Part shown: piece after piece, positions 3,915 to 61,825 of the stretch
Layout: each line of letters starts with the position of its first letter
Position numbering within the stretch: position 1 is the stretch's first letter
Assembly: GCA_049322675.1 (NCBI GenBank)
Contig: JBMORM010000025.1
Location: forward strand, 128,520 to 192,519
DNA length: 64,000 nucleotides
Source: Patescibacteria group bacterium
GTDB lineage: Bacteria; Patescibacteriota; JAHJAL01
Direction: 5' to 3'
Position numbers and translations under genes: made by a program
The notes under the pieces: generated by a model
Databases searched by the model: none
What the model saw: only the letters and a program-made list of their open reading frames with translations
Told to the model about the DNA's origin: nothing

Positions 3915-3921
3915 TATAGAG

Positions 3922-3993
3922 GAAATTTTCAATTTTCAATTTTTAATTTTCAAACGATATTGTTTAGAAATTAAAAATTAGAAATTAAAAATT
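3922..3993. repeat. Inverted-repeat element, same family (TTTTCAATTTT / AGAAATTAAAAATT units)
   Basis: Arms ggaaattttcaattttcaatttttaattttcaaac and gtttagaaattaaaaattagaaattaaaaatt. Confidence 0.65.
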
Positions 3994-4702
3994 GTTTATC
4001 ATGAATCAAAACAATGGCAATGATATTGAAATAAAAATTGGTGAGAATGATCAACATAAGGACGAGTTGGCCAATCGACTAAAACAGAGATTGGAAAAAG
4101 ACAAGAAGGATGAATTGGGAGATGTAGTATTTCATGCAACCGATCCTCGGTTAAAGTACAATGCCTGGTGGACAGTTTTGATGGTGACTTTGATCACGGT
4201 TGCTCTGGGTGTGATAGTTTTTTTGGTGGTCAAAGGAGCGCCGAATACTTCGGTTGTTAAGGAGCAAGAGAGGTTGGCTGGTTTCAATCAGGTAAAAGTA
4301 AAATATGATCAGGCCTTGGTGGCGGCTACCAATGAGTTGGTAAAGGCGGAAAATAGTTTTAATAACGGTAATTTTTCCGAGGCCAATGATACTTCCAAAA
4401 TAGCCGAAGACGATTTTAATCAGCTTATCGACTATGCTTATGAATTGGGTGGGGTTGATTTGGGAGATCAAAATCAAGCTTTCAAGAGTTATTTTGCCAA
4501 TTTGGAAGAAGCCGCCAAGTTAGGTGAAAAAATGTCTAAGTCTTTGGCGTACGCTTCGAGATCGGCTGATAGGGGACAAGAAGTCGAAGCAAAAAAATCT
4601 TTATCTGAATATGATGGATATGCGCAGGATTTGGAGTTGGTGATAAAAAAAGTACAGGCGTTTAAAAATAGCCAGGGAGAGTTTTTTAAGGCAAACACGT
4701 AA
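3992..4702 (+). CDS. Hypothetical single-pass membrane protein
   Basis: One TM helix (WWTVLMVTLITVALGVIVFLVV). The track start is TTG at 3992; ATG at 4001 is the likelier start. Confidence 0.4.
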   Translation: MFIMNQNNGNDIEIKIGENDQHKDELANRLKQRLEKDKKDELGDVVFHATDPRLKYNAWWTVLMVTLITVALGVIVFLVVKGAPNTSVVKEQERLAGFNQVKVKYDQALVAATNELVKAENSFNNGNFSEANDTSKIAEDDFNQLIDYAYELGGVDLGDQNQAFKSYFANLEEAAKLGEKMSKSLAYASRSADRGQEVEAKKSLSEYDGYAQDLELVIKKVQAFKNSQGEFFKANT

Positions 4703-4756
4703 TTTAATTTTTGAGTTTGTCTTTACATTTTTGTTTTATTTGATAGGCAAGAAAGG

Positions 4757-4900
4757 AATTTCCAATTCTCAATTCTCAATTTCCAATAAATTTCCAATGA
4801 ACAATTTTCAAACAAATATATTTTTTAGGCGATACTCATGTTTGTTTGGAAATTGGACATTGAGCCTTTTTTGGAAATTGAGAATTGAAAATTGGAAATT
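4757..4900. repeat. Miniature inverted-repeat element, heptamer-repeat family
   Basis: A 57-nt left arm nearly identical to 2104-2160; right arm GGAAATTGAGAATTGAAAATTGGAAATT. It contains the TTG that the track uses as the RNase H start. Confidence 0.7.
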
Positions 4901-5340: not shown

Positions 5341-5480
5341 TGAGAAAAATTTTCAATTTTCAATTTTCAGTTTTTCCCTCACGGGATCGAACTGCTGCTG
5401 ACAAACATATTTTGTATGCGATATTTGAAAATTGGAAATTGAAAATTTATTGGAAATTGAAAATTGGAAATTGAAAATTT
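5341..5480. repeat. Inverted-repeat element, heptamer-repeat family, with a GC-rich core
   Basis: Arms ttttcaattttcaattttcag and (gaaaattggaaattgaaaatt)x2 flank the core ccctcacgggatcgaactgctgctgac. Confidence 0.65.
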
Positions 5481-8472
5481 TGTAAACGAATATAACAGAT
5501 TGAATCCTCGCCAAAAAGAGGCTGTTGATACTATTTATGGCCCCGTGATGGTAATTGCCGGTCCGGGGACGGGGAAGACGCAGACTTTGACGGTGAGGAT
5601 TGCCAATATTTTACAAAAGACGGATAGTATGCCGTCTAGTATTTTGTGCCTGACTTTTACCAATTCAGGTGTTAAGGCAATGCGGGAACGTTTGGTAAAA
5701 ATAATTGGTCCTGACGCCTATCGGATCGATATTCACACCTTCCATTCTTTTTGCAACGAGGTGATAACTTTTCATCCCGAGCGTTTTTTGTTTGCCAAAA
5801 AAATGCAGCAGATCACTGATTTGGAACAGATTCAATACGTGATGAAAATATTGAATGAAGGTGATTTTAAGTTATTGCGGCCACCCAAGGCGGCGGATTT
5901 TTATCTCAAAAGTATTATCAAGGCGATTGGTGATTTAAAGATGGAAGGTTTGACTCCTGAAGAGTATGAAAAAATTGTCCGGCAAAGACATCAAGAATAT
6001 GAAATATTTCTAGCGGAAAGAGAAAAGAAGCCGACGCAAAAAGATTTGTCGGAAAAAACTTCGATTGAAAGAAATCTGGAATTGTCAGATTTGTATCGCA
6101 AATATCAAGAGTTGATGCGGGAAAATGGTCGTTATGATTACAATGACATGATCTTGTTTGTTTTAAATGAGTTTAAAAAAGATATAAATTTTCTGGCGGG
6201 GTATCAGGAGAAATATTTATTTATTTTGGTGGACGAATATCAGGATACCAATGGGGCACAAAACGAGTTGATCAAATTGATGGGCGCCAAGGTGGATCAA
6301 CCGAATATTATGGTGGTGGGGGATGACGAGCAGTCGATTTACCGTTTCCAAGGCGCCAGTTTGGAAAACCTGTTATTTTTTACCGATTTGTTTCCCAAAA
6401 CAAAAAAAATTGTTTTGAATATAAATTATCGCAGTCCAAAAAATCTGGTGGCGGCTGCCAGATCGATGATTGTTCAAGCCGGGGTTAATGCTCAGCAAGT
6501 TTTGGCGATAGATAAAGAGATTGAGGCGGCAAACCAGAATGATGTGCCCGGGGCGTGGTTAGTAAAACTTGAGAGCGATGATTTGGAACAAAGTTGGATT
6601 ATGGAAAAAATAAAAAAATTATCGCAGAGCGGAGTAGATCTGTCGGATATTGCTTTGATTTTTCGAACCAATGACGAGATGGAAGATTATAAAAAGCTAT
6701 TTTTGGCAGCCGGCATTGACTGGCGATTTTTGACCGGAGCCAATATTTTGCAGGAGAAGATCATATCGCAGTTGGTTGATTTGATACGAGTGATTATCAA
6801 TCCTTTCAACGACGAGTTGTTGTTTAAGGTAATGTATTTTTCCTGGCTCAAAATAGATGAAGTGGATCATTATCGTTTATTAAGTTTTGGTCGCCGAAAA
6901 ATATTTGCTTGGCTAGTGGAAAACAAAGATGCTGATTTGACTGACAAGTTTAAAGATTGGCCTGGATTGGTAAAATTTGCCAATTTTGTTTTAATAATCA
7001 GAAAAGAAAATGCCAATCGGACTTTACCGGATGTTTTGGAAAAATTGATCAAACAAAGTGGTTTATTGAAATGGGTAGTGGAAGACAAAAAGAGAGTAGG
7101 GGATTTGCCAAAGTTAAAGAGCTTTTTCAAATTTGCCAAGTCGGCGGCCGCCAATCGGGTTGAATATGATTTAAGTGAGTTTATAAATACTTTGGCGGAC
7201 ATGAAAGATCATGATTTGCCGATTCGTTTCAACGAGATGGATTTTTCCAAGTCGGCAGTGGTTCTGACGACGGCTCATGGTAGCAAGGGCTTGGAGTTTG
7301 ATTATGTCTTTATTGTCAAAGCGGTGGACAAACATTGGAGCAACAAGACTGCGCGGGAATTAATAAAAATAGTGCCGGGAGTGATCAAAAAACAACCCGA
7401 AAAGACAGAAGCGGTGGATGAAGAAAGAAGACTATTTTACGTGGCTATGACGCGAGCCAAAAAAGAATTGTATATTACCTGGGCGAAAAAATATGGTCTG
7501 GGCAAAGATGAAAAAGAGACGATCGAATCAATGTTTGTGGCCGAAATAGATCAAAATTTTTCTCAGTCTGTCGATAGTGGATTGTCGGAGCAAAAAAATA
7601 AAGAATTGATTGCCGATTATTTTGACAAAAAGCCAGAGGCGGTTTTTTCAGTTGAATTGACTGATTATTTGCGACATTTGGTTGATGAATTTGTCCTCAG
7701 TCCTACTGCTTTGAATAAATATCTGGATTGTCCCAGAAAGTTTTTATACGAAAGTTTATTGCGGGTGCCGATGGCCAAGAAACTACCCTTGCAATACGGA
7801 TCGGCGATACATTACGCGTTGGAAATGTTTTACAGCGAGTATAAAAAGACTAAACAATTACCGGAAAAAGAGGTTTTGTTGCAATATTTTGAGGCGGGTT
7901 TAAATAAAGAAGTCTTAGCTGAGCATGACCTGAAACATCTTCGACAAAATGGCCGGGAAAATCTGGCAAAGTATTATGATTTTTATTGTGATAAATTCAA
8001 GATTCCGATTTACAATGAGTTCAATTTTGGCAGCAAAAAGATATTATTGGATCAGCAAATCCCGATCACGGGCAAGGTTGATCGGGTAGAGTTATTGGAG
8101 GATAGTGATGGTGAGACCGTGAGAGTGATTGATTATAAAACCGGACAACCCAAGAGTCGCAATGATATTTTGGGTAAAACCAAGACTTCGACTGGCGATT
8201 ATCACCGGCAGCTGATATTTTACAAGTTACTCGGGAGACTATCTTCCAGCTTTATTTACAAAATCAAAGAAGTGGAATTAGATTTTGTCGAACCCAAAAA
8301 AGGTTCGGGAAAATTTGTTCGAGAATCTTTTATGATCGAATTGGAACAGTTGAATCAATTAAAAAAAATGATTCGAGAAGTCTGGGTCAAAATTCAAGCT
8401 TTGCAATTTCCCTGCCTGCCTGAAAAAAATAAATGCAAAGATTGTGATTATCGCGATTTGTGTGATAAATAA
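5464..8472 (+). CDS. UvrD/PcrA-family helicase fused to a C-terminal PD-(D/E)xK (RecB/AddB/Cas4-like) nuclease with a 4-Cys cluster
   Basis: N-terminus LNPRQKEAV...VIAGPGTGKT (Walker A), DEYQDT (Walker B), helicase motif VI-like YVAMTRAKKELY. C-terminus YLDCPRKF ... CLPEKNKCKDCDYRDLC (four Cys, AddB/Cas4 type). The TTG start lies inside a repeat element. Confidence 0.7.
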   Translation: MEIENFVNEYNRLNPRQKEAVDTIYGPVMVIAGPGTGKTQTLTVRIANILQKTDSMPSSILCLTFTNSGVKAMRERLVKIIGPDAYRIDIHTFHSFCNEVITFHPERFLFAKKMQQITDLEQIQYVMKILNEGDFKLLRPPKAADFYLKSIIKAIGDLKMEGLTPEEYEKIVRQRHQEYEIFLAEREKKPTQKDLSEKTSIERNLELSDLYRKYQELMRENGRYDYNDMILFVLNEFKKDINFLAGYQEKYLFILVDEYQDTNGAQNELIKLMGAKVDQPNIMVVGDDEQSIYRFQGASLENLLFFTDLFPKTKKIVLNINYRSPKNLVAAARSMIVQAGVNAQQVLAIDKEIEAANQNDVPGAWLVKLESDDLEQSWIMEKIKKLSQSGVDLSDIALIFRTNDEMEDYKKLFLAAGIDWRFLTGANILQEKIISQLVDLIRVIINPFNDELLFKVMYFSWLKIDEVDHYRLLSFGRRKIFAWLVENKDADLTDKFKDWPGLVKFANFVLIIRKENANRTLPDVLEKLIKQSGLLKWVVEDKKRVGDLPKLKSFFKFAKSAAANRVEYDLSEFINTLADMKDHDLPIRFNEMDFSKSAVVLTTAHGSKGLEFDYVFIVKAVDKHWSNKTARELIKIVPGVIKKQPEKTEAVDEERRLFYVAMTRAKKELYITWAKKYGLGKDEKETIESMFVAEIDQNFSQSVDSGLSEQKNKELIADYFDKKPEAVFSVELTDYLRHLVDEFVLSPTALNKYLDCPRKFLYESLLRVPMAKKLPLQYGSAIHYALEMFYSEYKKTKQLPEKEVLLQYFEAGLNKEVLAEHDLKHLRQNGRENLAKYYDFYCDKFKIPIYNEFNFGSKKILLDQQIPITGKVDRVELLEDSDGETVRVIDYKTGQPKSRNDILGKTKTSTGDYHRQLIFYKLLGRLSSSFIYKIKEVELDFVEPKKGSGKFVRESFMIELEQLNQLKKMIREVWVKIQALQFPCLPEKNKCKDCDYRDLCDK

Positions 8473-8482
8473 TTGTCAATCG

Positions 8483-8543
8483 TAGGGGCGACCCTCGCGG
8501 TCGCCCGGTTTTCAATGTAGGGGCGAGGTTTCCCCGCCCCTAC
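8483..8543. repeat. Two adjacent GC-rich hairpin palindromes sharing a GTAGGGGCG arm
   Basis: GGGCGACC-ctcgc-GGTCGCCC, then GTAGGGGCG-aggtttccc-CGCCCCTAC. These are about 80% GC in a ~35% GC genome, immediately after the helicase-nuclease stop. Confidence 0.6.
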
Positions 8544-8612
8544 GGTGATGAATGGCAAAAAATTTTGGTCTATGATATATTTATTTCTTACGTGTTTAAC
8601 ACGAAAATACCC

Positions 8613-8641
8613 TTGACAATTATGTTTTTGCGTGATACGGT
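8613..8641 (+). promoter_or_regulatory. Sigma70-like promoter: TTGACA, 17-nt spacer, extended -10 TGATACGGT
   Basis: cTTGACAatt(N14)GTGATAcGGTG lies 34 nt upstream of the 8675 ATG. A near-identical ~44-bp motif recurs at 17935-17978. Confidence 0.5.
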
Positions 8642-8674
8642 GAGACCTGATTTTGAAACCATTAATTTTGTAAT

Positions 8675-11074
8675 ATGACAAATAGTTTAGAAAAAAATGG
8701 CTTGGACAAAAAGGTTATTGATTCGCCGGTGGATAAAATGTCGGCGGAACAGATAAAAAAATTGCTTTTTCAGTATTCCCAGTCTTTGGATCCTAAAGAT
8801 CGGATTACTAAAAATCCGGTCGATATTATGTCGCCAAAAATGACTCAACAGTTAAAAGAAAGGTATGTAAAAATTGATAAACCAGTAGAGGCGCGGTCTC
8901 CGCGCCTGGAAATGGCAGAAAAGGCCGAATCTGTTTCGGAAACATTAACAATGGAATCAATCGAAAAGGATTGGATGCCATCTGATTTTGTAGGGGCTGA
9001 CTTTACGCCTGCTCAACCTGAATCCGCAGGGGCGGACCCATGTGTCCGCCAGAATGCCGAACCAAAAACCTGGAAATCCTGGTTCAAATCCGCGGGTGAA
9101 AAATTGAAAAATGCCGGCGAAAAGATCAAAAATTTCTTTTTGGTACCGGAAGAGGAAAAATTAACCGCTATCAAAAGAGAAGACGATAAAATCACTATTG
9201 ATTCCGGGTTGCAAGCTGAATTGAAAGATCAAATCAGAAAAGAAGGCCAAAAAGAACAGGAAAAATACGAAAAAAATAGTTGGGTGGTGCGTTATCCCTG
9301 GCTTAAAAATACTTTGCAAAAAGTAGAAGACATGAAAGCTTCTGTTGAGGGATTTACTGTTGGCGTCTTGATACCGGCCGTTTCTAGAATTGTTTTGCAT
9401 GATCCAATCTTGACTTCATTGGCTGGCGGAACAACCGGGATGTTTTTGAAGTTTAAGTTGAGTCAAAAGTTTGAAAGAGCTTATTATTCAGTCGAACAAG
9501 TTAATGCGGTCGTGGAGGAAAAATTAAAGAATATCGATATTTTGTCGGTAGCGGCTTGCGCGGCTTTTTTGGATAAACTTGCCAGTAAGAATAAAATTTT
9601 AGCCGACAAGTCCGATATGCAATATTTTATTCAGTTAAGAAATGGGATAAATAACCGTTTGATCGATCTGCTGGCCAAAGCGGATAGCCGCGATGAATCC
9701 TGTGGTATCTGGGTTTTTCAAGATAAGCAGGGAAATAAAGTTATTCGTTCTCGGGTTGATATTAGCAGATTACTGGAAAAAGATGTTCAGGGGATGATGT
9801 TTGCCATGAATGCCGATGATCGTGCCAGATTTGAGAAAAGGTATTCTCAAGGCTTGTTGGCTGGTGTTTTGGGTAATCTGGCGACTGCGGTTTGGGGCTG
9901 TTCTCCTCACGACCAGGATCATCCTGGTAGCAAAAAAGATGATACCGACAATCATTTGCATCAAAGCAAACCGACCAAAATACCCAAGCCGGAAGATATG
10001 GAGCTAGACAAACATCGGATTATCAAACCAACTGCGGACTCAATTTTTGATCGTCACGATCATCCGTTTGATCTACAGGAAAAAATCAATACTGAATCTA
10101 CTCGTGTTGTGGCTCAAAATACGGTAAATGATTCTGTTGCTCCTGCACCGACTCCGACCGAGAATACCGGTTCGGGTAATCATGTTTATACGACTACCGA
10201 TGAAAATGGACATACCACTTATCATAGTGAAGGCGGATATTATAAATTGGAAGAAACTGACCCCAATGCCAACACGTATCGTTTGAAAGATAATGATCCG
10301 AATGCCAATCAGTATCATCTTGATTCAAAGCAGGACAGTGAGATTCAAGCTGGTTATCACCCCTTTGAAGCCACTCCAGATCATATAAAACATGATTCTT
10401 TCGGTGGCGGTGACAATAATCAACCGGGTATGGGCGGGGTCAATAAAGATCAAGATACTGTTTATGGTAATACAGAGTCAGATCAACCTACTTCCGATCA
10501 AAAACCGGTGTTACATCATAGCACTGAAGGCAAGAAGAATTTTGATGAATTTTTAAATGAGAAATCGGAATACAATGGATCAATAAAACCAGTTGTTAAT
10601 GAAAAACCGATCGATGCCAGCAAATTGTTTCATACTGAAAAGGGCTTGAAAAATTTTCAGGAAAATTGGGGCAGTCATTCTGAGCCCGTCAACAATCCTT
10701 CTTCGACTTCGACCACTCCGGCTCCGGAAAAGCTGGAAGATTATCAACCTTTGACTCCGGCGACACCGGTCAAGACTGAATCTTTAGATGGTTATCAAAA
10801 TTTGAACACTGATGTTCATTCCAATCCGGTAAAAGGAAGTGAAAATATCAATGAGTATCAATGGCTAAATGGTGAAAAACCATCTGGTACGGAAAAATTG
10901 GAAGATTATATTCCTTTAAACCAGAGTAATACTCAAAAGCTGGATGATTTGACTGGTTATACGCCTTTAAATCAGCCGGTCAATCAGGAAGATGTTAATT
11001 CATATGCTCCCTTGAATGGCAGTCCGGTGCCTCAGATCCAACCCGAGAGTTTGGACGGATATCAAAAGTTGTAA
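8675..11074 (+). CDS. Hypothetical 799-aa protein: ~430-aa globular N-terminal region plus a long low-complexity tail with 7 YxxLN-type motif repeats
   Basis: ATG at 8675. The tail carries repeats LEDYQPL, LDGYQNLN, INEYQWLN, LEDYIPLN, LTGYTPLN, VNSYAPLN, LDGYQKL. No recognisable catalytic motif. Confidence 0.45.
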   Translation: MTNSLEKNGLDKKVIDSPVDKMSAEQIKKLLFQYSQSLDPKDRITKNPVDIMSPKMTQQLKERYVKIDKPVEARSPRLEMAEKAESVSETLTMESIEKDWMPSDFVGADFTPAQPESAGADPCVRQNAEPKTWKSWFKSAGEKLKNAGEKIKNFFLVPEEEKLTAIKREDDKITIDSGLQAELKDQIRKEGQKEQEKYEKNSWVVRYPWLKNTLQKVEDMKASVEGFTVGVLIPAVSRIVLHDPILTSLAGGTTGMFLKFKLSQKFERAYYSVEQVNAVVEEKLKNIDILSVAACAAFLDKLASKNKILADKSDMQYFIQLRNGINNRLIDLLAKADSRDESCGIWVFQDKQGNKVIRSRVDISRLLEKDVQGMMFAMNADDRARFEKRYSQGLLAGVLGNLATAVWGCSPHDQDHPGSKKDDTDNHLHQSKPTKIPKPEDMELDKHRIIKPTADSIFDRHDHPFDLQEKINTESTRVVAQNTVNDSVAPAPTPTENTGSGNHVYTTTDENGHTTYHSEGGYYKLEETDPNANTYRLKDNDPNANQYHLDSKQDSEIQAGYHPFEATPDHIKHDSFGGGDNNQPGMGGVNKDQDTVYGNTESDQPTSDQKPVLHHSTEGKKNFDEFLNEKSEYNGSIKPVVNEKPIDASKLFHTEKGLKNFQENWGSHSEPVNNPSSTSTTPAPEKLEDYQPLTPATPVKTESLDGYQNLNTDVHSNPVKGSENINEYQWLNGEKPSGTEKLEDYIPLNQSNTQKLDDLTGYTPLNQPVNQEDVNSYAPLNGSPVPQIQPESLDGYQKL

Positions 11075-11376
11075 GAGATAAAAAGTATTGACTAAATATA
11101 TATTTTGTGGTAGTGTTTAGTTATTGGAAACGTGAAAATATTCTCTAGGGGCTGATTTTCAAAGGAGGGAGGCGGTAGTTAGGGATGGAGCAAATTGATG
11201 GTTCCATCTCCGTCTATCGCCTTTATTTTCAAAAGGGCGATTGTTCTTTACAAATTTGGTATTAAAAAACCTCTCGATCCTGTAAATTTAGGACTTAAGA
11301 AGGAGTGATGATTTTTTAAGTTAATGCAGGGGAGAGGGGGAAGAAATAAAATATAAAAAAGAAAGGATGATTTTCT

Positions 11377-12225
11377 GTGAGAAAAAAGATTGTTTTTCTG
11401 GTTGCTTTTTTTGTTCTGTTCACGTTTTCGGTTTCCATGGCTAATCCATTAGCATGGATTTCTTTGGTTTTTGGAGTATTTCAGTGTTTGCGACCTTCAG
11501 AGAAGGTGAATACGCAAAATGTGGCAATTTTTTCCGTGAGCTTTTACTCCAAAAAATTGGGTCAATCAAATATCATGAATGTTGCTGATAAGGAAATATC
11601 GGCATGGATAAATTCTGAGGCGTTAAAAGAATATCCTGACATGGAAATGATCGTTTCAGGAGATATGTCAATGATATTTGATGCTGATGCGCCTACTGAA
11701 CGTTTCCAAGTAGCAATAAATGGCTCAAGTGCAAATCCAATGTTGTGTAAAGATATTGATACTGAGTCTTTATCGGGTTGGACTGTAAAGTTTAACTTAC
11801 TGGATGTATTACGGACTGTATCTGCTGACCATCAAAGATCATGTGTGGTAAGGGTTATGATTATTTCAAAAGAAGACGCAGTTGCCCGCGGCTTCTTTTA
11901 CCTAAATTTTGAAGGCAATGACTTTATAGGGTCGCAAGGGTATGAAGCGCAGAAAAAAATATATGGCGATCCTGTTGCCATATACGGTGAACAAAAGTCG
12001 AATGTAGTTCAACTATTTTCGAATGAAAATTGTTATTTTCGTATAATCACCTCTAAGGGAGAAAAGTTGCTAGGAGAGTGTAACAAAATTTATGTTCTTG
12101 ATTATTCGAAAATCGGAACAACTTTTGTTATACAAAAGGTACAGGTTCAGAATGGTTTAGTACTTCCCATTGGAAGTGAAATAAAATTTGACGGAAGCCA
12201 GAAGGAGGTGAACTTGGATGAATAA
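11377..12225 (+). CDS. Secreted hypothetical protein (signal peptide)
   Basis: GTG start with upstream AAAGGA; N-terminus MRKKIVFLVAFFVLFTFSVSMA. Its end overlaps the next gene by 8 nt, which suggests an operon. Confidence 0.45.
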   Translation: MRKKIVFLVAFFVLFTFSVSMANPLAWISLVFGVFQCLRPSEKVNTQNVAIFSVSFYSKKLGQSNIMNVADKEISAWINSEALKEYPDMEMIVSGDMSMIFDADAPTERFQVAINGSSANPMLCKDIDTESLSGWTVKFNLLDVLRTVSADHQRSCVVRVMIISKEDAVARGFFYLNFEGNDFIGSQGYEAQKKIYGDPVAIYGEQKSNVVQLFSNENCYFRIITSKGEKLLGECNKIYVLDYSKIGTTFVIQKVQVQNGLVLPIGSEIKFDGSQKEVNLDE

Positions 12226-13192
12226 ATATTTTGTTTTCATCCTTGTTTTTTTATTAATTTTTAATTCAGTAAATTTTTCGGGGCAGGTTAAGGCACAGGC
12301 GGCTCAAAGCTGGAATCACATGGGAGGAAATCCCAACCAACTCTCTTTTTATGAGACGTTGGTTTTCATGGGATACTCCAAGTCCGAGGCCGGGCAACTG
12401 GCTGAGGATTTTAAAAGTGGAAAGTTCGAGGTGACTCTGAGAGAACATGGTATTATTTACAAAGTCATGACGTTTGGTTTCAAAGAAACAATGACCAACG
12501 TTATGACAAACTGGCAGGAGGGAAGTTCATATCCAGTGGCACACTGGAAAAATACCTCTAAAGGGCCGTTGGACTATTATGCTTGGTCGTGCAAAAATGT
12601 TGGTTGGCCAGAATTAACGGTTCCGACTCCGCCACCAACACCTCCGACAGTAGTCCCGACACCACCGCAGACACCTCCTCCAACACCTCCGACAGTAGTC
12701 CCGACACCACCGCAGACACCTCCTCCAACACCTCCGACAGTAGTCCCGACACCACCGCAGACACCTCCTCCAACACAGCCGCCCACGCCTCCTCCGACTC
12801 CGCCCCAGACACCCCCGCCAATTACTTTCAGTAAGGGGTCAATTCCGACTCCGGCAGCAGTTGTGATTGGGCGGCCGCCGTTTATTCCTCCGGTTGATAT
12901 ACCGGAACCGGAGGATAACGGGACGCCTTGTCCTACGGGGTCACCTACAGTGGTGCCGACGCAAAATTGTGATCCGGGGGGTACTCCAGCTCCCACCCCG
13001 CCGCTTCCAGCTCCTACCCATCTTCCCATTACTCCAGTCCCCGGGGCTCCTACGCCCCCACCTCTTCCTACTCTGATTCCGGTTGTGACTCCCGTGCCTA
13101 CTGGCGGCACGGTGGTCACAGTTCCGACTTATCAACCAGTATCTGGGGGAACCCCGGCCCCCACGCCTCCTTTACCCGGGGTAAAAAAATAA
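12218..13192 (+). CDS. Secreted Pro/Thr-rich repeat protein (extensin-like linker)
   Basis: Perfect SD GAAGGAGGTG before ATG 12218; signal peptide; (PPTVVPTPPQTPPPT)x3 encoded by a perfect 45-bp tandem repeat. Confidence 0.55.
   Translation: MNKYFVFILVFLLIFNSVNFSGQVKAQAAQSWNHMGGNPNQLSFYETLVFMGYSKSEAGQLAEDFKSGKFEVTLREHGIIYKVMTFGFKETMTNVMTNWQEGSSYPVAHWKNTSKGPLDYYAWSCKNVGWPELTVPTPPPTPPTVVPTPPQTPPPTPPTVVPTPPQTPPPTPPTVVPTPPQTPPPTQPPTPPPTPPQTPPPITFSKGSIPTPAAVVIGRPPFIPPVDIPEPEDNGTPCPTGSPTVVPTQNCDPGGTPAPTPPLPAPTHLPITPVPGAPTPPPLPTLIPVVTPVPTGGTVVTVPTYQPVSGGTPAPTPPLPGVKK
12641..12775 (+). repeat. Perfect 3 x 45-bp tandem repeat (cctccgacagtagtcccgacaccaccgcagacacctcctccaaca)
   Basis: Three identical copies with a partial fourth upstream, in frame inside the Pro-rich CDS. 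Confidence 0.85.
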
Positions 13193-14937: not shown

Positions 14938-15156
14938 ATGACTTATCGTTTTACAACTATTATTACCAAAGAAGGCAAATGGTATGTGGCGCGCTGTTTG
15001 GAGCTGGAAGTGGTTAGTCAGGGGAAGACGGTGGAAGAGTCGCAGAAGAATCTGAAGGAAGCGGTGGAGCTGTTTTTGGAGGATCAACCGAATCCCCGGA
15101 AATTTGCTACAAAATCTTATCCAATTGTGACTACGTTGGAATTGAATCATGCCTAA
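14938..15156 (+). CDS. hicB: HicB-family antitoxin (UPF0150)
   Basis: YVARCLELEVVSQGKTVEESQKNLKEAVELFLE is the typical HicB N-terminal RNase H-like fold signature. The track start is TTG at 14917; ATG is at 14938. It overlaps hicA by 8 nt. Confidence 0.7.
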   Translation: MTYRFTTIITKEGKWYVARCLELEVVSQGKTVEESQKNLKEAVELFLEDQPNPRKFATKSYPIVTTLELNHA

Positions 15157-15373
15157 AACTATTTCGGGAAAAAAATTGGTGCGGATTTTATGTCGTTATT
15201 GGGGTTTTGTTTCGGTTTCGCAAAGAGGCAGTCATATAAAATTGAAGTTTTGCGATAAAAACAAAGATATTGTTGTGATTGTGCCTTTGCATTCGGAATT
15301 GGCGCGGGGAACTTTGAAGGGGATTTTAAAGCAGGCTCGGATTGGTGAAAAAGAGATTAGGGGGTATTTTTGA
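15149..15373 (+). CDS. hicA: HicA-family mRNA interferase toxin
   Basis: GKKLVRILCRYWGF...QRGSHIKL...LKGILKQA matches the HicA/YcfA dsRBD-like consensus (SGKELIKLLEKNGW..RQKGSHH...GTLRSILKQAGL). Confidence 0.75.
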   Translation: MPKTISGKKLVRILCRYWGFVSVSQRGSHIKLKFCDKNKDIVVIVPLHSELARGTLKGILKQARIGEKEIRGYF

Positions 15374-15432: not shown

Positions 15433-15500
15433 GTGTTGGGCTACCGTAATGGTCGCCCTTACTGATGGGGTGGATGCATGGTCATGTGTTGTTTTGTATC

Positions 15501-15528
15501 GTAGGGGCGGTTCATGAACCGCCCCTAC
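15501..15528. repeat. Perfect 28-nt GC-rich palindrome GTAGGGGCGGTTCATGAACCGCCCCTAC
   Basis: It shares the GTAGGGGCG/CGCCCCTAC arms with the elements at 8483-8543. Confidence 0.7.
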
Positions 15529-17844: not shown

Positions 17845-17944
17845 ATTTTTTGTTTCTACTTTAATAAAAATAACCTTTGATGAGGTTGTTTTTTTTGTGT
17901 CCAAATGTTATGTTGGTTTCTGGCCTATTTTTCCGTAAATACTC

Positions 17945-17973
17945 TTGACAATTGGCTTTTCAAGTGATATGGT
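17945..17973 (+). promoter_or_regulatory. Sigma70-like promoter TTGACA-17-TATGGT embedded in a conserved ~44-bp motif
   Basis: cgtaaatactcTTGACAattggcttttcaaGTGATAtGGTGgga is about 80% identical to 8601-8644. Confidence 0.5.
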
Positions 17974-18017
17974 GGGATAAAACTTTATCATATATCTAAG
18001 GGAAATAAAATAATTTT

Positions 18018-21000
18018 ATGGTGAACAAAATGAAAAATTTATTTGCAAGTGTTCCTAAAAAGGTTAAATCCTTTTTGGTGGGAGTGGTGGCAATGGGTAT
18101 GTTATTGCCGACTATTTTACCTGGATTGGGAAATTCTGCAATGGCTGCGTCTCCTGTGTTTAATGATCAAGCCAATGATTATGCGACATTGAGAGTAGCC
18201 AATGCCAATAATCCCAGTGTTTTTAGTACCAGCGTGAATGCCAATCCTGGAGATCAGGTAATTTATAGTATTTATGTTCATAATACTGTTCTGGATACAA
18301 CCGCTATCAATACTGCTGTAAGAGCGGCTATTGATACTCAATATGCGACTGCGCATGGTGCAATGGCAACAGTTTGGGCAGAAAATGCCAGTCCGGTAGC
18401 TGGTAATGCCATTGTTTATACAGGTAATACCAGAACAAAAATGGAATATTTGCCCAATTCTGCTTATAGGTTTGTTACTGGTTCAAGCAATTGGGAGCCG
18501 ATGCCTGATGGGGTAATCGGGACTGGTTTGGTTTTGGGAAATGTTCAAGGTTGCTGGGAATATGTACAGCAGGTAATTTTTAGAGCAACTGTTGTTGCAG
18601 AACCTGTTCAACCTGCTGTAATTGGTATTAACAAACAAGTAGCTTTGGTTACCACAGGTGGTAATTCTTATGTTGAAAATGTTACTGCTAAAAATGGTGA
18701 CACTGTTTCTTTCAGTTTGAGTTTGGCAAATACCGGAGGTAGTGCTGCTACCAACGTAGTTGTTAAAGATGTATTGCCAAGTGGATTGGAATTTATCTCG
18801 GGATCTACCAAATTGAATGGTAATCCTGTGGCTGACACTTTGTTTACGACCGGTGTCAAAATTGATAGTTTAGCTGTTGGCGCAGTACCTTCTATTACTT
18901 TCCAAGCGAAAGTGACTGCAAGTACACCTGGTGTTTTGACAAATACGGGCACGGCGACGGCAGATAGTTTGGGACAGGTAAGTGATACTGCTACTGTGAC
19001 TATTCAACAAGTTTTGCAACCGGCTTTGGGTATTGCTAAAACTGTTTTAAATAATAGTTTAGTTGGCGGCACTTTTGCTGAAAATGCCAATGCTAAGACT
19101 GGTGAAACCGTGACTTTCAAGTTGATTGTAAGTAATACCGGTCAGTCTGAGGCCAAGAATGTGGTGGTGGCTGATCAGGTTCCGGCCGGATTGGCTTATG
19201 TCAGCGGTTCTACCAAGGTGGATGGAGTGGCGGACAATACCAATGCGATCACCGGGAATGGTTTAAATATTGCCAATATTGCCGCTGGAGCTTCCAAAAC
19301 GGTTACTTTTGAAGCGACTGTTTCGGCTACTTTGGCTCAGACTATTACCAATACTGGTACAGCCAGGGCGGAAAGTGTTAATCAGGTTGGTGATACGGCA
19401 ACTGTAACAGTTCAACAAGCTGGCCAACCCGTAATCACTATCGCCAAGACAGTGTCTTTGGGTGATGGATCCAGCAATTTTATTGAAAGTGTCAACGCGG
19501 TCAATAACGATATAGTACGTTTTCGTTTGATTGTAAGTAATAATAGCGGAGTTTCCGCTGACAATGTAAAAGTTTGGGATGGTTTGCCAAGTGGTTTAAC
19601 TTACATCGACAATTCAACTACTTTGGATGGAGCGGCACAATCTGGCAATGCGATTGTAAATAGTGGTATTACTTTGGGTACGATGACCAATGGTTCAACT
19701 CATACAGTTATTTTCAATGCTCGAGTCAATTCCAATAGTACTACTTTGACCAACTATGGCCGAGCCAATATCAATGGGACTAGCCAAGTGGAAGATCCAG
19801 CTACTGTAGTGGTGGGTGGAGCGAGTAATACTACCTTGTCTTTAGACAAGCAAGTTGCTCGAGGTGAAAATGGAACTTCTTATTATGAAAGTGTTTCGGC
19901 AGAAAATAGTGAATATGTTCGTTTCCGTATGGTGGTGCGAAATACCGGTAATGTTAGAGCCGACAATGTACAAATTGCCGATAATTTACCAAGTGGCTTG
20001 ACTTATGTGTCTAATTCTACTTACCTCGATGGGGTAAGACAAAATGATACTATAACTTCCAGTCGTTTGGATTTGAGTAATATGGATCCGGGTGTAAGTC
20101 GTACTGTTACTTTCAATGCTCGAGTCAATACTTCGTCCAATTCGACTATTACCAATGAAGCTACTGTTACATCGGATAATGCGACTTTGGTCAGGGATAC
20201 AGCGCAAGTTCAGGCCAACGGTTCTGATAGTGATCCATATTTGGAAATTACCAAAGAAGTTGATCAGGCAGTTGCAGATCCAGGTGACGAATTGAGATAT
20301 ACTATTCGAGTTCGAAACACCGGATCCGGTAATGCCACCAATGTTCGTATAGTTGATGATTTGCCGGAAAGAGTTCGCTATGTTTCGGGTTCATTGACTA
20401 TAACCGGAGATGGTGATGTCGAAGATGATGATTTGTTTGACGATGGTGTGATTATTGATAGACTGGAACCCGGAGATGATGTCTTGATTCGTTTTACGGC
20501 TCGTGTTGATAGTGATATTTCAGGAAATATGACTTTGGAAAATGTGGCTATTGCTCGTGATGATCAAGGTGATCGAGCCGAGGATGAGGTGGTGACAGAA
20601 ATTGAACAGGATGAGGCATATTTGGATATAGACAAGCAAGTTGACAAGTCAAGGGCCAATCCCGGTGATGAATTGCGCTATACAATAACAGTCCGCAATA
20701 CCGGATATGCCAATGCGACAAATGTCAGAGTATATGATGATTTGCCAAGTTATGTTGAAGTGGTGAGTGGCAGTTTGAGTGTTTCCGGTGATCATATTTC
20801 TTCCAGCGATTTGTTTGATAATTATGTTCGAGCCAGTTATCTGGAAAGAAATGATGAAATCAATATTACTTTTAGAGCCAAGATTAGAAGTGATATTACT
20901 ACTGATATGACTTTGGACAATGTGGCACGAGTGACTGCTGATGATGGATTGAGCGATAGGGATGTTGCTTCTACTTATATAGGCGCCAATGTTTTGCAAC

Positions 21001-21548
21001 CGAGTTTCAAGTTATCAAAGTTGGTTCGTAATGAGACCAAGGGTGAATCAACATTCAATCAATCAAATACTTCTGACCCTGGTAATGTTATGGAATACAA
21101 GATTACCTTGACCAATAATGGAAGTAGCCGTCTGACCGGCGTCAAGTTGAATGATATTTTGCCAAGTGGTTTGATGTATTTGGGTGGTACTGCTAAAGCC
21201 AGTATGAACAACTACGACATATCTGGTGATTGGAACAAGGTTGTTGAGCAGGGTGGTGTATTGTTGCCTGACATGAATGTCAATGATATTTTTACTTTGG
21301 TGTTCAAAGTGAAATCGAAAACTGATATTGCTGCCAATTCAACTTTAGTGAATACGGTCAATGTGGTGGCTGATCAAAATGTAAATGCTCAGGCGACGGC
21401 TAGTACATCATTTACACAAGTTGCTCAACCGCAGGAACTTCCCAAATCTGGTCCAGAAGTTGCTTTGGCTGGGTTTATCTTTTTGGCAGTTTCGTCAATA
21501 TTTTGGTTTGTCAGAGAAAAATGGCTTTTGACGACACAGATTATGTAA
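18018..21548 (+). CDS. Giant cell-surface protein with tandem DUF11-type repeat domains and a C-terminal LPxTG-like sortase signal (LPKSG + TM + REKW)
   Basis: N-terminal signal peptide. At least 8 repeats of ~110 aa with the DUF11 signature (TYTITVxNTG...ATNVxVxDxLPxGLxYVSGS). C-terminus ELPKSGPEVALAGFIFLAVSSIFWFVREKW. Confidence 0.65.
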   Translation: MVNKMKNLFASVPKKVKSFLVGVVAMGMLLPTILPGLGNSAMAASPVFNDQANDYATLRVANANNPSVFSTSVNANPGDQVIYSIYVHNTVLDTTAINTAVRAAIDTQYATAHGAMATVWAENASPVAGNAIVYTGNTRTKMEYLPNSAYRFVTGSSNWEPMPDGVIGTGLVLGNVQGCWEYVQQVIFRATVVAEPVQPAVIGINKQVALVTTGGNSYVENVTAKNGDTVSFSLSLANTGGSAATNVVVKDVLPSGLEFISGSTKLNGNPVADTLFTTGVKIDSLAVGAVPSITFQAKVTASTPGVLTNTGTATADSLGQVSDTATVTIQQVLQPALGIAKTVLNNSLVGGTFAENANAKTGETVTFKLIVSNTGQSEAKNVVVADQVPAGLAYVSGSTKVDGVADNTNAITGNGLNIANIAAGASKTVTFEATVSATLAQTITNTGTARAESVNQVGDTATVTVQQAGQPVITIAKTVSLGDGSSNFIESVNAVNNDIVRFRLIVSNNSGVSADNVKVWDGLPSGLTYIDNSTTLDGAAQSGNAIVNSGITLGTMTNGSTHTVIFNARVNSNSTTLTNYGRANINGTSQVEDPATVVVGGASNTTLSLDKQVARGENGTSYYESVSAENSEYVRFRMVVRNTGNVRADNVQIADNLPSGLTYVSNSTYLDGVRQNDTITSSRLDLSNMDPGVSRTVTFNARVNTSSNSTITNEATVTSDNATLVRDTAQVQANGSDSDPYLEITKEVDQAVADPGDELRYTIRVRNTGSGNATNVRIVDDLPERVRYVSGSLTITGDGDVEDDDLFDDGVIIDRLEPGDDVLIRFTARVDSDISGNMTLENVAIARDDQGDRAEDEVVTEIEQDEAYLDIDKQVDKSRANPGDELRYTITVRNTGYANATNVRVYDDLPSYVEVVSGSLSVSGDHISSSDLFDNYVRASYLERNDEINITFRAKIRSDITTDMTLDNVARVTADDGLSDRDVASTYIGANVLQPSFKLSKLVRNETKGESTFNQSNTSDPGNVMEYKITLTNNGSSRLTGVKLNDILPSGLMYLGGTAKASMNNYDISGDWNKVVEQGGVLLPDMNVNDIFTLVFKVKSKTDIAANSTLVNTVNVVADQNVNAQATASTSFTQVAQPQELPKSGPEVALAGFIFLAVSSIFWFVREKWLLTTQIM

Positions 21549-21620: not shown

Positions 21621-21670
21621 TGAATTAACAATGAATAATTAACAATTAACTGTTAATTATTCATTGTTAA
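21611..21670. repeat. AT-rich palindrome (aacaatgaataattaacaattaac / gttaattattcattgtt) of the AATGAATAAT family
   Basis: Seen directly in the sequence, downstream of the surface-protein terminator. Confidence 0.55.
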
Positions 21671-21736
21671 TTATTAATTCCAACCTTGGGTTTGTGTTAT
21701 ACTTTATAAAGTAATATAAGTTTTATATTGAGAAAA

Positions 21737-22832
21737 ATGATTCATGAATTGGAAAAGCAAGTTGAGATATTGAAATCAGAAGTAAACAAAAATAAGGAGT
21801 ATCTTTGAGGGCACTGGCATATTAAAAAATATTGCTGATTTGGAAAGTAGGACGATGGTTGAGGATTTTTGGCTTGATAGGGACAAAGCGGAGTCTGTGT
21901 TGTCTAGTTTGTCGGCGGCAAAAAAAAAGTGGCAGGTGTGGCTGGATTTAAGTCGGGAGGTTTCAGATTTAGCTGAGTTGATATATATAACCAATGAGGA
22001 AGCTCAGCAAGATGAGCTAGAACAGTTGGTTGCTGATTATAATTTATTGGAGCATAGATTCAAAAGGGCGGAGATCGAGTTGCTATTGACTGGTTCTTAT
22101 GACCATTGTGATGCATTTTTGTCGATTCACTCGGGTACAGGAGGGGTGGATGCACAGGATTGGGCAGAAATGTTGCTGAGAATGTATTTGAGATACTGTG
22201 AAATAAGTAATTACAAGGCTGAAATTGTTAATATTTCTTCTGGAGAAGAGGCGGGGATAAAGAGCGCAATGGTCAAGATTGTTGGCGAAGATGCCTATGG
22301 CTACTTAAAAACTGAGCATGGTGTTCATCGTTTGGTTAGGCAGTCTCCGTTTAATGCCAAAGCTTTGCGTCAGACTTCTTTTGCCTTGGTTGAAGTGATG
22401 CCGATTTTTGATAAGACCATCAATCTGGAAATAAAAAAAGATGATTTGAGAATAGATACTTTTCGAGCTTCTGGTCATGGGGGGCAAAAGGTTAATAAAA
22501 CCGATTCGGCAGTTAGGATTACGCATTTACCTTCTGGTTTAGTAGTAGCTTGTCAGAGCGAGCGTTCTCAGATGCAAAACAAGGAAACAGCGATGAATAT
22601 TCTCAAAAGTAAATTGATTTTATTGCGAGAACAAGAAAATCGAGAGAAAGAAAAAAAGATCAAAGGGGAGGTAAAGCAGGGAAGTTGGGGTAATCAGATT
22701 AGGTCATACGTCTTGCATCCTTATCAGATGGTAAAAGATCATAGGACTGATTTTGAGACGAGTGATACTCATGGTGTTTTAAATGGCGAGATAGAAGAGT
22801 TTATCGAGGCGGCTTTGAGAAAAAGTTTCTAG
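21737..22832 (+). CDS. prfB: Peptide chain release factor 2 with programmed +1 ribosomal frameshift (CTT TGA G at 21803-21809)
   Basis: Frame 0 reads MIHELEKQVEILKSEVNKNKEYL then TGA. Internal SD AAGGAG plus TAT CTT TGA G matches the E. coli AGGGGG TAT CTT TGA C site. The +1 frame continues EGTGILK... through the SPF tripeptide and GGQ (RASGHGGQKVNKT). Confidence 0.8.
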
Positions 22833-22890
22833 TTTTTAATTTCTAAACAATGTATGTTTAAAAATTAAAAATTAAAAATTAAAAATTGTT
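22831..22890. repeat. Inverted-repeat element (AATTAAAAATT units) between prfB and ftsE
   Basis: aatttctaaaca-atgtat-gtttaaaaattaaaaattaaaaatt. Confidence 0.55.
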
Positions 22891-22894
22891 TGCG

Positions 22895-32509: not shown

Positions 32510-33643
32510 GTGAATAATATGAATAATCAAGTGAATAACTCTAATCAGCCTATTGGTCAGAGTGAGGGTAAGTTGTTGGACAGCATATATGCTTCTTGGC
32601 AGCAGGAGGAGTTGGATAATATTAATGTTACCAATATGATTGCCAAGGCTTTTGGTGGTTTGAAACGCAAACAGAGGCATGTTTTAAAGAGGAGATATGG
32701 AATTGGTGGTTTGGAAAAAAAGACTTTGCAAGAGATAGGTGATAGTTTTGGTGTTACTAGAGAAAGAATAAGACAGATAGAGAGATCAGCGTTAAAAAAA
32801 TTGAACAAAGAAGTAAATATTAAATATTTTCGTCCGGTTACGGCAGCAGTTGCTTTTGAATTGGAAAAATCTGGTGGAATTATATCAGAGCGAACATTAA
32901 TAAGACGCATTTTAGGTAATAATTATTCAGAGGAAAATAATAGTGGTATGAAATTGATTTTGGAGGTTTTTCCTGATTTTTATTATGCTAAAGAGTGTGA
33001 TCATAAAAATGAAGCCTGGCATCTAAGAGAATGTGATCTAGAAAGAGTCGTAAAGGTGATAAAAAGTTCGATTGAGTATTTGGAAAATAGAGGGGAAATA
33101 GTGTCTATTGATGAATTAAAAAGTGATATTGCTAGTAAACATGAATTGACTGAAGATCATTTGGTGTCGCTTATGGATTTGTCGAAGATGATTATGCAAA
33201 CATCTGATGGTGGTTTTGGTCTTAAATCTTGGAAGTTTATAAATCCAAAGAATATTAGGGACAAGATATTTTTTGTTTTTCATAGAACAAAGAAACCTAT
33301 GCATTTTATGGAAATTACCGATTTAATAGTGAAAGAGGATTTTTTGCATAAGAAAAAAATAACTCACCAGGCGGTTCACAATGAGTTGATTGCTGATGAT
33401 AGATATGTTTTGATAGGCAAAGGAATATACGCTTTGAAAGAGTGGGGTTATCAACCTGGTACAGTAGTGGATGTTATCAAACAGATAATAAAGGAGGCAA
33501 AAAGACCTCTTTCAAAGGCTGAAATTATCGAAGAGGTCTTAAAACGTAGAATAGTGAAAAAAAATACTATTGTCATTAATTTGCATAATAAAAAATATTT
33601 TGACAGAACTACTGATGATAACTTTGTTTTGAAAAATCAATAA
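32510..33643 (+). CDS. Sigma-70 region-4 HTH domain fused to a HARE-HTH (RNAP delta-like) domain; putative transcription/DNA-binding factor
   Basis: N-terminal block LKRRYGIGGLEKKTLQEIGDSFGVTRERIRQIERSALKKL (sigma region 4.2). C-terminal KPMHFMEITDLI...RYVLIGKGIYALKEW matches the HARE-HTH signature (GKGxYxLKEW). GTG start at 32510 or ATG at 32519. Confidence 0.5.
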   Translation: MNNMNNQVNNSNQPIGQSEGKLLDSIYASWQQEELDNINVTNMIAKAFGGLKRKQRHVLKRRYGIGGLEKKTLQEIGDSFGVTRERIRQIERSALKKLNKEVNIKYFRPVTAAVAFELEKSGGIISERTLIRRILGNNYSEENNSGMKLILEVFPDFYYAKECDHKNEAWHLRECDLERVVKVIKSSIEYLENRGEIVSIDELKSDIASKHELTEDHLVSLMDLSKMIMQTSDGGFGLKSWKFINPKNIRDKIFFVFHRTKKPMHFMEITDLIVKEDFLHKKKITHQAVHNELIADDRYVLIGKGIYALKEWGYQPGTVVDVIKQIIKEAKRPLSKAEIIEEVLKRRIVKKNTIVINLHNKKYFDRTTDDNFVLKNQ

Positions 33644-47428: not shown

Positions 47429-47429
47429 A

Positions 47430-47500
47430 TTTTCAATTTCCAATTTTCAATTTCCAATTTTCAATTTCCAATTTTCAAATATATTTTGAAAAATAATTTG
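47430..47500. repeat. Heptamer tandem repeat (TTTTCAATTTCCAA x3.5) plus hairpin TTTTCAAATATATTTTGAAAA at the recR start
   Basis: Seen directly in the sequence; it supplies the spurious MEIEN N-terminus in the track. Confidence 0.65.
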
Positions 47501-47514
47501 GATATTGAACAATA

Positions 47515-50065: not shown

Positions 50066-50076
50066 GTTTGTATGTT

Positions 50077-61747: not shown

Positions 61748-61751
61748 GGGA

Positions 61752-61825
61752 TAATTTTTAATTTTTAATTTCTAATTTTTAAACATATTTTGTTTAAAAA
61801 TTAGAAATTAAAAATTAGAAATTTT
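61752..61825. repeat. Inverted-repeat element (TTTTTAATTTCTAA / TTAGAAATTAAAAA units) between rmuC and truB
   Basis: taatttttaatttttaatttctaatttttaaac-atattttg-tttaaaaattagaaattaaaaattagaaatttt. Confidence 0.65.

Follow-up and report, generated by a model that had tools for sequence, protein, structure and literature searches.

A conserved promoter pair at two genes of a Patescibacteria lineage: probable housekeeping promoters of common origin

Why should two lineage-specific genes which lie a few kilobases apart in an uncultured Patescibacteria group bacterium be preceded by similar blocks of 44 bp, and does such a likeness point to a common regulator? The question is raised by a stretch of 64,000 nucleotides (contig JBMORM010000025.1 of assembly GCA_049322675.1; hereafter “the window”, to which coordinates refer unless a relative is named) where one copy of the block precedes the gene of an orphan protein of 799 amino acids (gene A) and the other that of a cell-surface protein of 1176 amino acids (gene B). 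An original prediction, made without database searches, had concluded from the similarity of both copies beyond the -35 and -10 hexamers that they constitute conserved promoters of these two genes and that a shared regulator or a sigma-specific promoter type is implied. The first part of this inference stands, and the copies prove to be under selection and specific to the two genes; the second part is not supported. The reading we favour, and hold to be probable, is that both blocks are core promoters of the primary sigma factor which are of common origin and have been kept by selection for high expression.

Position and anatomy of the two blocks

Both copies are present in the window, although the spans originally given for them (8601-8644 and 17935-17978) are each off by one. 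Their elements as read from the sequence, together with the genes downstream, are as follows.

8602-8645, + strand: promoter P1 of gene A, hereafter copy 1, CGAAAATACCCTTGACAATTATGTTTTTGCGTGATACGGTGAGA
17934-17977, + strand: promoter P1 of gene B, hereafter copy 2, CGTAAATACTCTTGACAATTGGCTTTTCAAGTGATATGGTGGGA
8605-8612, + strand: AAATACCC, at about -43 to -36, A-rich block at the proximal UP subsite and -35 flank, invariant in three A orthologues
8613-8618, + strand: -35 hexamer TTGACA of copy 1, matching at six of six positions
17945-17950, + strand: -35 hexamer TTGACA of copy 2, matching at six of six positions
8633-8641, + strand: extended -10 element of copy 1, TG (8633-8634), A and TACGGT (8636-8641), spacer of 17 nt
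8642-8645, + strand: discriminator GAGA of copy 1
17965-17977, + strand: TG (17965-17966), A, TATGGT (17968-17973) and discriminator GGGA (17974-17977) of copy 2
8675-11074, + strand: gene A, open reading frame of the 799-residue orphan protein with C-terminal YxxLN repeats
18018-21548, + strand: gene B, 1176-residue cell-surface protein with seven DUF11/CLIPPER repeats (PF01345, E = 1.4e-96; TIGR01451)

Both copies are intergenic, lie on the same strand as the next gene and are situated just 3' of terminator hairpins. From the end of the -10 hexamer to the start of the open reading frame there are 33 nt in the case of gene A (8675) and 44 nt in the case of gene B (18018), and the assignment of the two promoters to these genes holds. 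The start of gene A at 8675 is backed by N-terminal homology in its orthologues. For gene B the ATG at 18030 is more likely to be the true start than 18018 because ATGGTGAA, which is conserved at the nucleotide level just upstream of it, would supply a GGTGA ribosome-binding site.

An ungapped count yields 34 identical positions out of 44 (77%, originally given as about 80%), 14 of which are canonical promoter positions. By itself this identity is only weakly significant window-wide: when the 64-kb window was shuffled ten times with a first-order Markov model, one of the shuffles contained a pair of 44-mers with at least 34 matches. A search of the window with the consensus pattern (two hits versus none in 100 shuffles) was not taken as evidence, since the pattern is built from the pair itself and the test is thus circular. 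We judge the pair to be real because of its position and conservation, not because of identity alone.

Both copies are composed of an A-rich AAATACYC, the hexamer TTGACA, a 17-nt spacer, a TG extended -10 element, TAYGGT and a G-rich discriminator. The counterpart of AAATACCC in copy 2 is AAATACTC; the more distant orthologues introduced below as outgroups are A-rich at this position as well, with a different sequence, and the C-terminal domain of the polymerase alpha subunit may make contact here. The proximal subsite of UP elements at -46 to -38 has the consensus AAAAAARNR, reportedly put forward by Estrem et al. in 1999. Here this stretch is A-rich, reading CGAAAATAC and CGTAAATAC in the pair and AAAAAAACC, AGAAAAGAC and AAAAAAGTG in outgroups. 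TTGACA is invariant across the 12 orthologous or paralogous promoters compared, the TG at -15/-14 is retained in all clade and outgroup orthologues, and TGATAYGGT is invariant across six clade sequences. The discriminator is conserved as G/T-R-K-R, with GAGG, GATG, TGGA and TGGG in the orthologues, and transcription is predicted to start near 8647-8649 in copy 1 and near 17979-17981 in copy 2. The -10 hexamers match TATAAT at three (TACGGT) and four (TATGGT) of six positions. A weak -10 hexamer can be compensated by a consensus -35 hexamer together with an extended -10 element (PMC10911233). GGGA at -6 to -3 is the optimal discriminator for sigma-A of Thermus aquaticus and strengthens sigma-A promoters, and some polymerases do not read UP elements (PMC3526302).

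The frame TTGACa-17-TGnTAtnnT occurs nine times in the window, with 2.1 matches expected, and as it recurs in front of other window genes it is to be regarded as the house style of this genome. The extended block is not simply this house consensus, however: AAATACYC, the AATT following the -35 hexamer and the GG within the -10 hexamer are found at none of the other promoter-like sites of the window. Motifs typical of alternative sigma factors, i.e. the -24/-12 element GG-N10-GC of sigma-54, TAAA-N15-GCCGATAA of sigma-28 and the GAAC...CGTC type of extracytoplasmic function sigma factors, are present in neither copy as read by eye.

Conservation, exclusivity and a second upstream element

The two loci were compared within a clade of four genomes (the window, DAIRGB, L012 and L013/L089) and with the outgroups L090, L091, L092 and L093. 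The metagenome-assembled genome (MAG) DAIRGB01, labelled “Patescibacteria group bacterium”, carries both loci with a divergence of about 4% in the promoter regions. In L012 (GCA_016294905.1), where A and B lie on one contig, the proteins are 59% (A) and 57% (B) identical to those of the window, and in L013 and L089, which derive from one sample, 39% (A) and 78% (B). In the more distant outgroups protein B is 42-50% identical. Orthologues of block A were taken from L012, L013 and the DAIRGB MAG, those of block B from the DAIRGB MAG (L002, L094), L012 and L089. Throughout the lineage A and B are syntenic, lying a few kb apart between the gene of a UvrD/PD-(D/E)XK helicase-nuclease and prfA.

Both blocks are kept at orthologous positions in the three further clade genomes. 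The orthologous A copies of L012, L013 and DAIRGB keep AAATACCCTTGACAATT and TGATAYGGT, and at both clade loci AAATACYCTTGACAATT and TGATAYGGT are nearly unchanged, although the proteins are merely 39-78% identical. As these parts are kept while the 11-nt spacer and the 5' untranslated regions (5'UTRs) have diverged, the blocks are under selection. Invariant in the six clade sequences are 13 of the 14 canonical positions, 9 of the 19 extra positions outside the spacer, a single one of the 11 spacer positions and 15 of 85 flanking intergenic positions (extras versus flanks, p = 0.009). Among the three A orthologues as many as 16/19 extras are invariant versus 1/11 spacer positions (Fisher p = 9e-5), whereas the three B orthologues, with 12/19, are less constrained and do not differ significantly from the flanks (p = 0.13). 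The claim that the similarity extends beyond the hexamers is borne out. Purifying selection acts on the extra positions, and the signal is clearest at A. They are located at -45 to -36, -29 to -27, -13 and -6 to -3. Some of the shared bases pointed out originally, namely CG at the 5' end, TTTT within the spacer and the G before TG, are indeed present in the pair but not conserved in orthologues: the TTTT and the G are not retained in L013, which reads GCAATATCGCATGATA, and the CG is replaced by TG in both L012 copies and by TGC in the DAIRGB B copy. In the B promoter of L089 the extras are relaxed (AAAAACCC...ACAACA) with the canonical parts kept.

The outgroup orthologues L090-L093 keep the A-rich stretch, TTGACA or TTGACT, the distance of 17 nt, TG and TAYnTT (-10 hexamers TATGTT, TACTTT, TATCTT and TATTTT), yet none of the clade extras. 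L090-L092 share 19 to 26 of 44 positions with any other member, which is about the level of any two canonical promoters. The extra similarity is accordingly confined to one clade of four genomes.

By the original prediction's own yardstick, many genes with equally similar sequences would have pointed to a local housekeeping consensus. Nothing comparable to the pair turns up a third time in some 113 kb of clade DNA, and the window, L012 and L013 contain no further site with three or fewer mismatches at 25 specified positions. A position weight matrix built on the six clade promoters gives the window pair 65.8 and 63.9 bits, as against -16 for the third best site; in L091, whose promoters did not enter the training set, those of A and B score higher than anything else in 22.8 kb. 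The scan for a regulon covered one collection of species-representative genomes and one of metagenomes, each with a strict pattern and including incomplete MAGs. Among 185,579 species-representative genomes CTTGACAATT-N10-GTGATANGGT retrieved the two orthologous DAIRGB01 sites and nine unrelated sequences. In the metagenome collection AAATACNCTTGACAATT-N11-TGNTA matched 74 loci, of which two belong to the lineage, both on the L012 contig (MAG JAEAMF01). AAATACNCTTGACAATT followed by TGnTA occurs in 28 unrelated metagenome groups; as 28 of all 30 groups have TAnnnT and seven have TATAAT, this upstream half of the motif is compatible with generic sigma-70 promoters, here those of other bacteria. 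One unrelated and apparently gut-associated locus accounts for 34 of the 74 metagenome hits (L017, L018, L021 and about 30 more), several of its records being labelled human gut metagenome. It reads AAATACYCTTGACAATTATTTRATTAAATGATAACAT, followed by repeated AACTTTGAATATCAAA boxes and an ATG, and looks like the highly conserved promoter of some abundant organism.

Further upstream, both loci share a second element, which lies 3' of the hairpins.

8486-8545, + strand: two GC-rich hairpins 3' of the helicase-nuclease gene (fold -41.1 kcal/mol, z = -4.3)
8573-8581, + strand: upstream block TGATATATT, candidate extended -10 element of a promoter P2 of gene A, from the clade alignment
17866-17896, + strand: intrinsic terminator of the upstream gene of 150 codons, hairpin and eight T (-11.6 kcal/mol, z = -4.5), AACCTTTGATGAGGTTGTTTTTTTT
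17906-17914, + strand: upstream block TGTTATGTT, candidate extended -10 element of P2 of gene B, from the clade alignment

The motif ATGnTATnTT (8572-8581; 17905-17914) is invariant in the six clade sequences and is placed 36-37 nt 5' of the -35 hexamer of P1. At gene A a promoter scan lists ATGGCA-18-TATATT with TG, the ATGGCA at 8552-8557 being a possible weak -35 element of P2; at gene B the TTGTTT at 17886-17891 might play this part. In the outgroups, a comparable TGTTATGAT lies 35 nt 5' of TTGACA at gene B of L091, and a similar element is found at gene B of L092. Since a second conserved element resembling an extended -10 thus occurs about 37 nt upstream at both genes, P2 and P1 are probably arranged as tandem promoters at A and B, with P2 presumably active. 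The segment 8486-8506, after which comes GGTTTTCAAT, was called terminator-like, and the hairpins at 8486-8545 would isolate gene A as a transcription unit of its own.

Downstream of the blocks the similarity between A and B stops at about +1. The presumed 5'UTRs fold no better than shuffled sequences (z = +0.2 and -0.5), and no Rfam match was obtained, either at the gathering threshold or at E <= 1. In the B 5'UTR (17978-18032) a conserved AAACTTTATCATATAT in the clade and TTGACATAWTTWTAT in the outgroups is seen 10-30 nt after the -10 hexamer upon comparison of the L089-L093 orthologues; this could be a UTR element or a further promoter.

The hairpins in front of gene A have further relatives in the window, all GC-rich and perfectly paired (GTAGGGGCG...CGCCCCTAC), although the genome has a GC content of only about 36%. 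Members of this family are located at 8482-8506, 8516-8545, 15453-15462 (- strand), 15501-15528 and about 62733-62760 (- strand), i.e. 3' of the helicase gene, 5' of a gene of 572 codons and upstream of a tRNA-Leu gene. In the relatives L012 (9840-9870) and L013 (5607-5690) the hairpin 5' of gene A is kept with altered stem sequence. The hairpins look like elements of the repetitive extragenic palindromic (REP) type or terminators. In addition, the 11-mer TTGACAATTAT of promoter A (8613-8623) has an inverted copy, ATAATTGTCAA, at 8470-8480, where it overlaps the stop codon of the helicase gene, so that the two hairpins lie between the 11-mers; L013 has the inverted copy as well (5596-5606). 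TTGACAATT gives four hits versus 2.1 expected. The inverted pair may be due to chance or may mark the edge of an inserted hairpin element.

Primary-sigma promoters or a shared factor

If our favoured reading is correct, RNA polymerase carrying a primary factor of the sigma-70/sigma-A type would read both P1 promoters, each of which combines nearly all known strengthening elements, that is an A-rich UP position, tCTTGACA, a 17-nt spacer, RTGn, TAnnnT and a G-rich discriminator. The non-consensus TAYGGT would be compensated by the consensus -35 hexamer and TG, and with the P2-P1 tandem directly behind a terminator two independent genes would be expressed strongly, at similar levels and in a largely constitutive manner. 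A promoter region of about 95 bp would have been copied from one locus to the other in the ancestor of the clade, with purifying selection subsequently acting on the polymerase contacts. Clade A-to-B identity amounts to 30-35 of 44 positions, compared to 32-37 among A and 34-38 among B orthologues; as A and B are no more alike within a genome than between genomes, this argues for an ancestral event and against ongoing gene conversion.

Such promoters have counterparts in other bacteria. Voskuil and Chambliss reportedly described in 1998 a Gram-positive “-16 region” TRTG and extended -10 promoters of the Bacillus type. As in these, R-T-G (GTG or ATG) precedes the -10 hexamer in all clade and outgroup copies, and TGn promoters are the house style of the genome; unlike in Bacillus, the T at -17 is not conserved, being replaced by C, A or G. 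With full-consensus sigma-70/sigma-A promoters (the engineered T5 N25cons; TATAAT-GGGA of Thermus sigma-A, PMC3526302) the pair has TTGACA, 17 nt, TG and TAnnnT in common. Between -46 and -38 it is likewise A-rich, and at -6 to -3 gene B has GGGA and gene A has GAGA. It differs from them by the conserved non-consensus TAYGGT and by a short A-tract (AAAT/AAAAT), and its strength and sigma dependence are predicted. Genes of abundant surface-layer proteins use two successive strong promoters (slpA of Lactobacillaceae; PMC10221546). A similar layout is met here, two promoter-like elements lying directly 5' of the large and probably abundant surface protein gene B and likewise of gene A, with each unit independent behind its terminator. 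In contrast to slpA, however, P2 is a conserved nonamer resembling an extended -10 with a weak -35, the 5'UTRs are devoid of a stabilising stem-loop, protein A is not evidently a surface protein, and B is of the adhesin type and not a demonstrated surface-layer protein.

Several observations do not sit easily with housekeeping promoters. The exact AAATAC and AATT are not obviously needed for polymerase contacts, the outgroups making do with other A-rich sequences, and the A orthologues keep 16/19 extras at a protein identity of 39-59%, which would fit a sequence-specific factor equally well. The non-consensus GG of the -10 hexamer is kept in six clade promoters and occurs at no other promoter-like site of the window. 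Codon-usage proxies for expression are uninformative as strand bias dominates codon choice, and the statement that each genome has two such sites only is based on strict patterns and incomplete MAGs. As polymerase contacts do not account in detail for the strictness of AAATAC and AATT or for the GG, there is room for a factor specific to the clade and, less probably, for an alternative sigma factor. We regard it as rather unlikely, though worth entertaining, that A and B form a two-gene regulon, in which a clade-specific DNA-binding protein or sigma-like accessory factor would recognise AAATACYC, AATT and A-TAYGGTG on top of the canonical promoter and co-regulate both genes; a speculative candidate is the sigma-region-4/delta fusion encoded at 32510-33643. 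Somewhat less probable still is the specific proposal that the 17-bp AAATACYCTTGACAATT plus TGATAYGGTG constitutes the site of such a factor, be it this fusion or a regulator typical of small genomes. That the extras are under selection, that they occur at two sites only in clade DNA with each collection-wide scan hitting one related MAG, and that A and B are neighbours lineage-wide would all be in line with a regulon, as would the absence of the extras from outgroup promoters, which is expected for a factor that arose in the clade. The window also encodes, besides the fusion of sigma-70 region 4 and HARE-HTH, a LytS/LytTR pair. In activator sites of the LytTR type (AgrA, ComE), a pair of 9-bp direct repeats with a separation of about 12 bp lies 5' of a weak -35 hexamer. 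The pair resembles regulon operators, such as LytTR repeats or class II activator dyads at -41.5, insofar as extra conserved bases flank or overlap the -35 hexamer and the gene set is small. In contrast to these, the six clade sequences have no direct repeat (at least 8/9) or inverted repeat (at least 7/8) in common, the -35 hexamer is perfect, and conservation is bipartite over the sigma contacts with a spacer free to vary (1/11 invariant). A perfect -35 hexamer with TG requires no activator, the B promoter of L089 has relaxed extras and intact canonical parts, and no regulator gene adjoins A or B. Because all conserved blocks coincide with polymerase contact zones, the spacer is free and neither dyad nor direct repeat is present, and because distant orthologues keep canonical promoters without the clade extras, we do not infer a dedicated regulator. 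It has no positive support, and the element would not represent a new kind of control.

That both promoters form a sigma-specific class read by a group 2 or group 3 alternative factor with a preference for TTGACA and TGATAYGGT, which would account for TGATAYGGTG being invariant in the clade and unlike other window sites (TATAAT, TATTAT, TATTGT, TAGTGT), is improbable: the -35 hexamer, spacing and TG are exactly of the primary-sigma type, the outgroup orthologues are without GG, which is hence not needed for A and B, two sites would make an unusually small sigmulon, and the window contains no complete gene of an alternative sigma factor. Chance likeness of two independent strong promoters, or a recent duplication whose traces evolve neutrally, in either case without constraint beyond the hexamers, could appeal to the fact that a 34/44 match is not very rare window-wide (one in ten shuffles) and that 14 of these 34 matches are canonical. 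We consider it very improbable, as unrelated canonical promoters here share some 19-26 of 44 positions rather than 30-35 and both regions have a second block in common at an equal distance, some 37 nt further upstream; moreover, the extras have persisted in three diverged genomes while spacers and UTRs diverged, which is neither recent nor neutral. Finally, there is hardly any likelihood that the block encodes something else, such as a small antisense reading frame, a cis-regulatory RNA or the end of a mobile element. Minus-strand reading frames of 24 and 27 codons overlap both copies in the same frame, and the inverted 11-mer ATAATTGTCAA/TTGACAATTAT brackets the hairpins 5' of A. The antisense frame was discarded because neither L012 copy retains its start codon and the variable spacer entails non-conservative changes, the cis-regulatory RNA because of the missing Rfam match (E <= 1), the unstructured UTRs and the end of conservation at about +1. 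A REP element, miniature inverted-repeat transposable element or other mobile element was dismissed since there are two copies only, at orthologous positions in every genome, and no terminal repeats at B.

The two genes, neighbouring features and significance

Gene A has no match in Pfam or NCBIfam. Its homologues number four among 5.8e9 proteins and two among 1.84e9 representatives, and a profile search of the latter returned its own family alone. According to hydropathy, protein A has neither a signal peptide nor a clear transmembrane segment, and an AlphaFold2 model built from four sequences turned out to be unusable (predicted local distance difference test score 34). Its C-terminus (10700-11074) carries LxxYxxLN repeats in the window, while orthologues of 84% and 59% identity (P0002 and P0003) have F(E/A)PYQ or SYTSSGS repeats instead; the tail appears to be a fast-evolving region of low complexity whose repeat type is not conserved. 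Protein B, on the other hand, possesses a signal peptide and a C-terminal LPKSG with a hydrophobic tail, so the original label “secreted or surface proteins” fits B only. CLIPPER domains are known from fibrillar adhesins, whose isopeptide-bonded stalks they make up (PMC12617251). Codon adaptation was rejected as a proxy for the expression of these genes: an index trained on plus-strand genes places every minus-strand gene below every plus-strand one and thus measures strand composition bias, not expression.

Directly 3' of the stop codon of gene A, at 11088-11116, lies a promoter-like site TTGACT-17-TGgTAGTGT followed by a 290-nt leader. Two secreted lineage-specific proteins are encoded at 11377-13192, the second containing PTPPQTPPPTPPTVV tandem repeats (12625-12817), and between the A and B loci a HicB-like/HicA toxin-antitoxin pair is found (14939-15373, + strand), with HicA_toxin also called on the orthologous contig L094.

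The 377-residue protein encoded at 32510-33643 (+ strand) comprises sigma-70 region 4 only (residues about 4-110, resembling RpoD/RpoS) and a delta/HARE-HTH domain (about 253-351); lacking region 2, it is not a complete sigma factor. Its gene sits behind a TTGACA-17-TGnTATTAT promoter of its own. The region 49307-51288 (- strand) encodes a histidine kinase resembling LytS (5TMR-LYT, His_kinase) together with a response regulator of the LytTR type similar to BtsR/LytR (49307-50065), the sole classical regulator pair among the window proteins scanned.

Many intergenic regions contain AT-rich heptamer repeats (AATTTYC)n with inverted copies, forming AT hairpins of up to 20 pairs, for example 3' of gene B (2097-2164, 3917-3998, 4750-4817, 5341-5479, 21624-21671, 22826-22892, 47421-47509 and 61747-61828); these may be lineage-typical terminators or small repeat elements. 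GC skew is strongly positive throughout the window (+0.03 to +0.49) despite a switch of gene orientation at about 36.7 kb.

A full-text literature search found no study specific to promoters or start sites of Patescibacteria. Only the discovery of a dedicated factor would make the pair the starting point of a new mechanism. Many Patescibacteria are regarded as episymbionts, and for the following the same is assumed of this bacterium. If a factor specific to both genes existed, it would define a minimal regulon of two genes coupling the orphan 799-residue protein to a sortase-anchored CLIPPER adhesin, and this regulon could, under that assumption, serve attachment to a host. The promoters of Patescibacteria, also referred to as the Candidate Phyla Radiation, have hardly been described, and the pair provides a phylogenetically footprinted example of a probable strong promoter which may be of use in annotation, in the choice of expression signals and in flagging A and B as probable high-abundance products. 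It would also illustrate how a second gene can acquire a copy of a promoter region which selection subsequently maintains.

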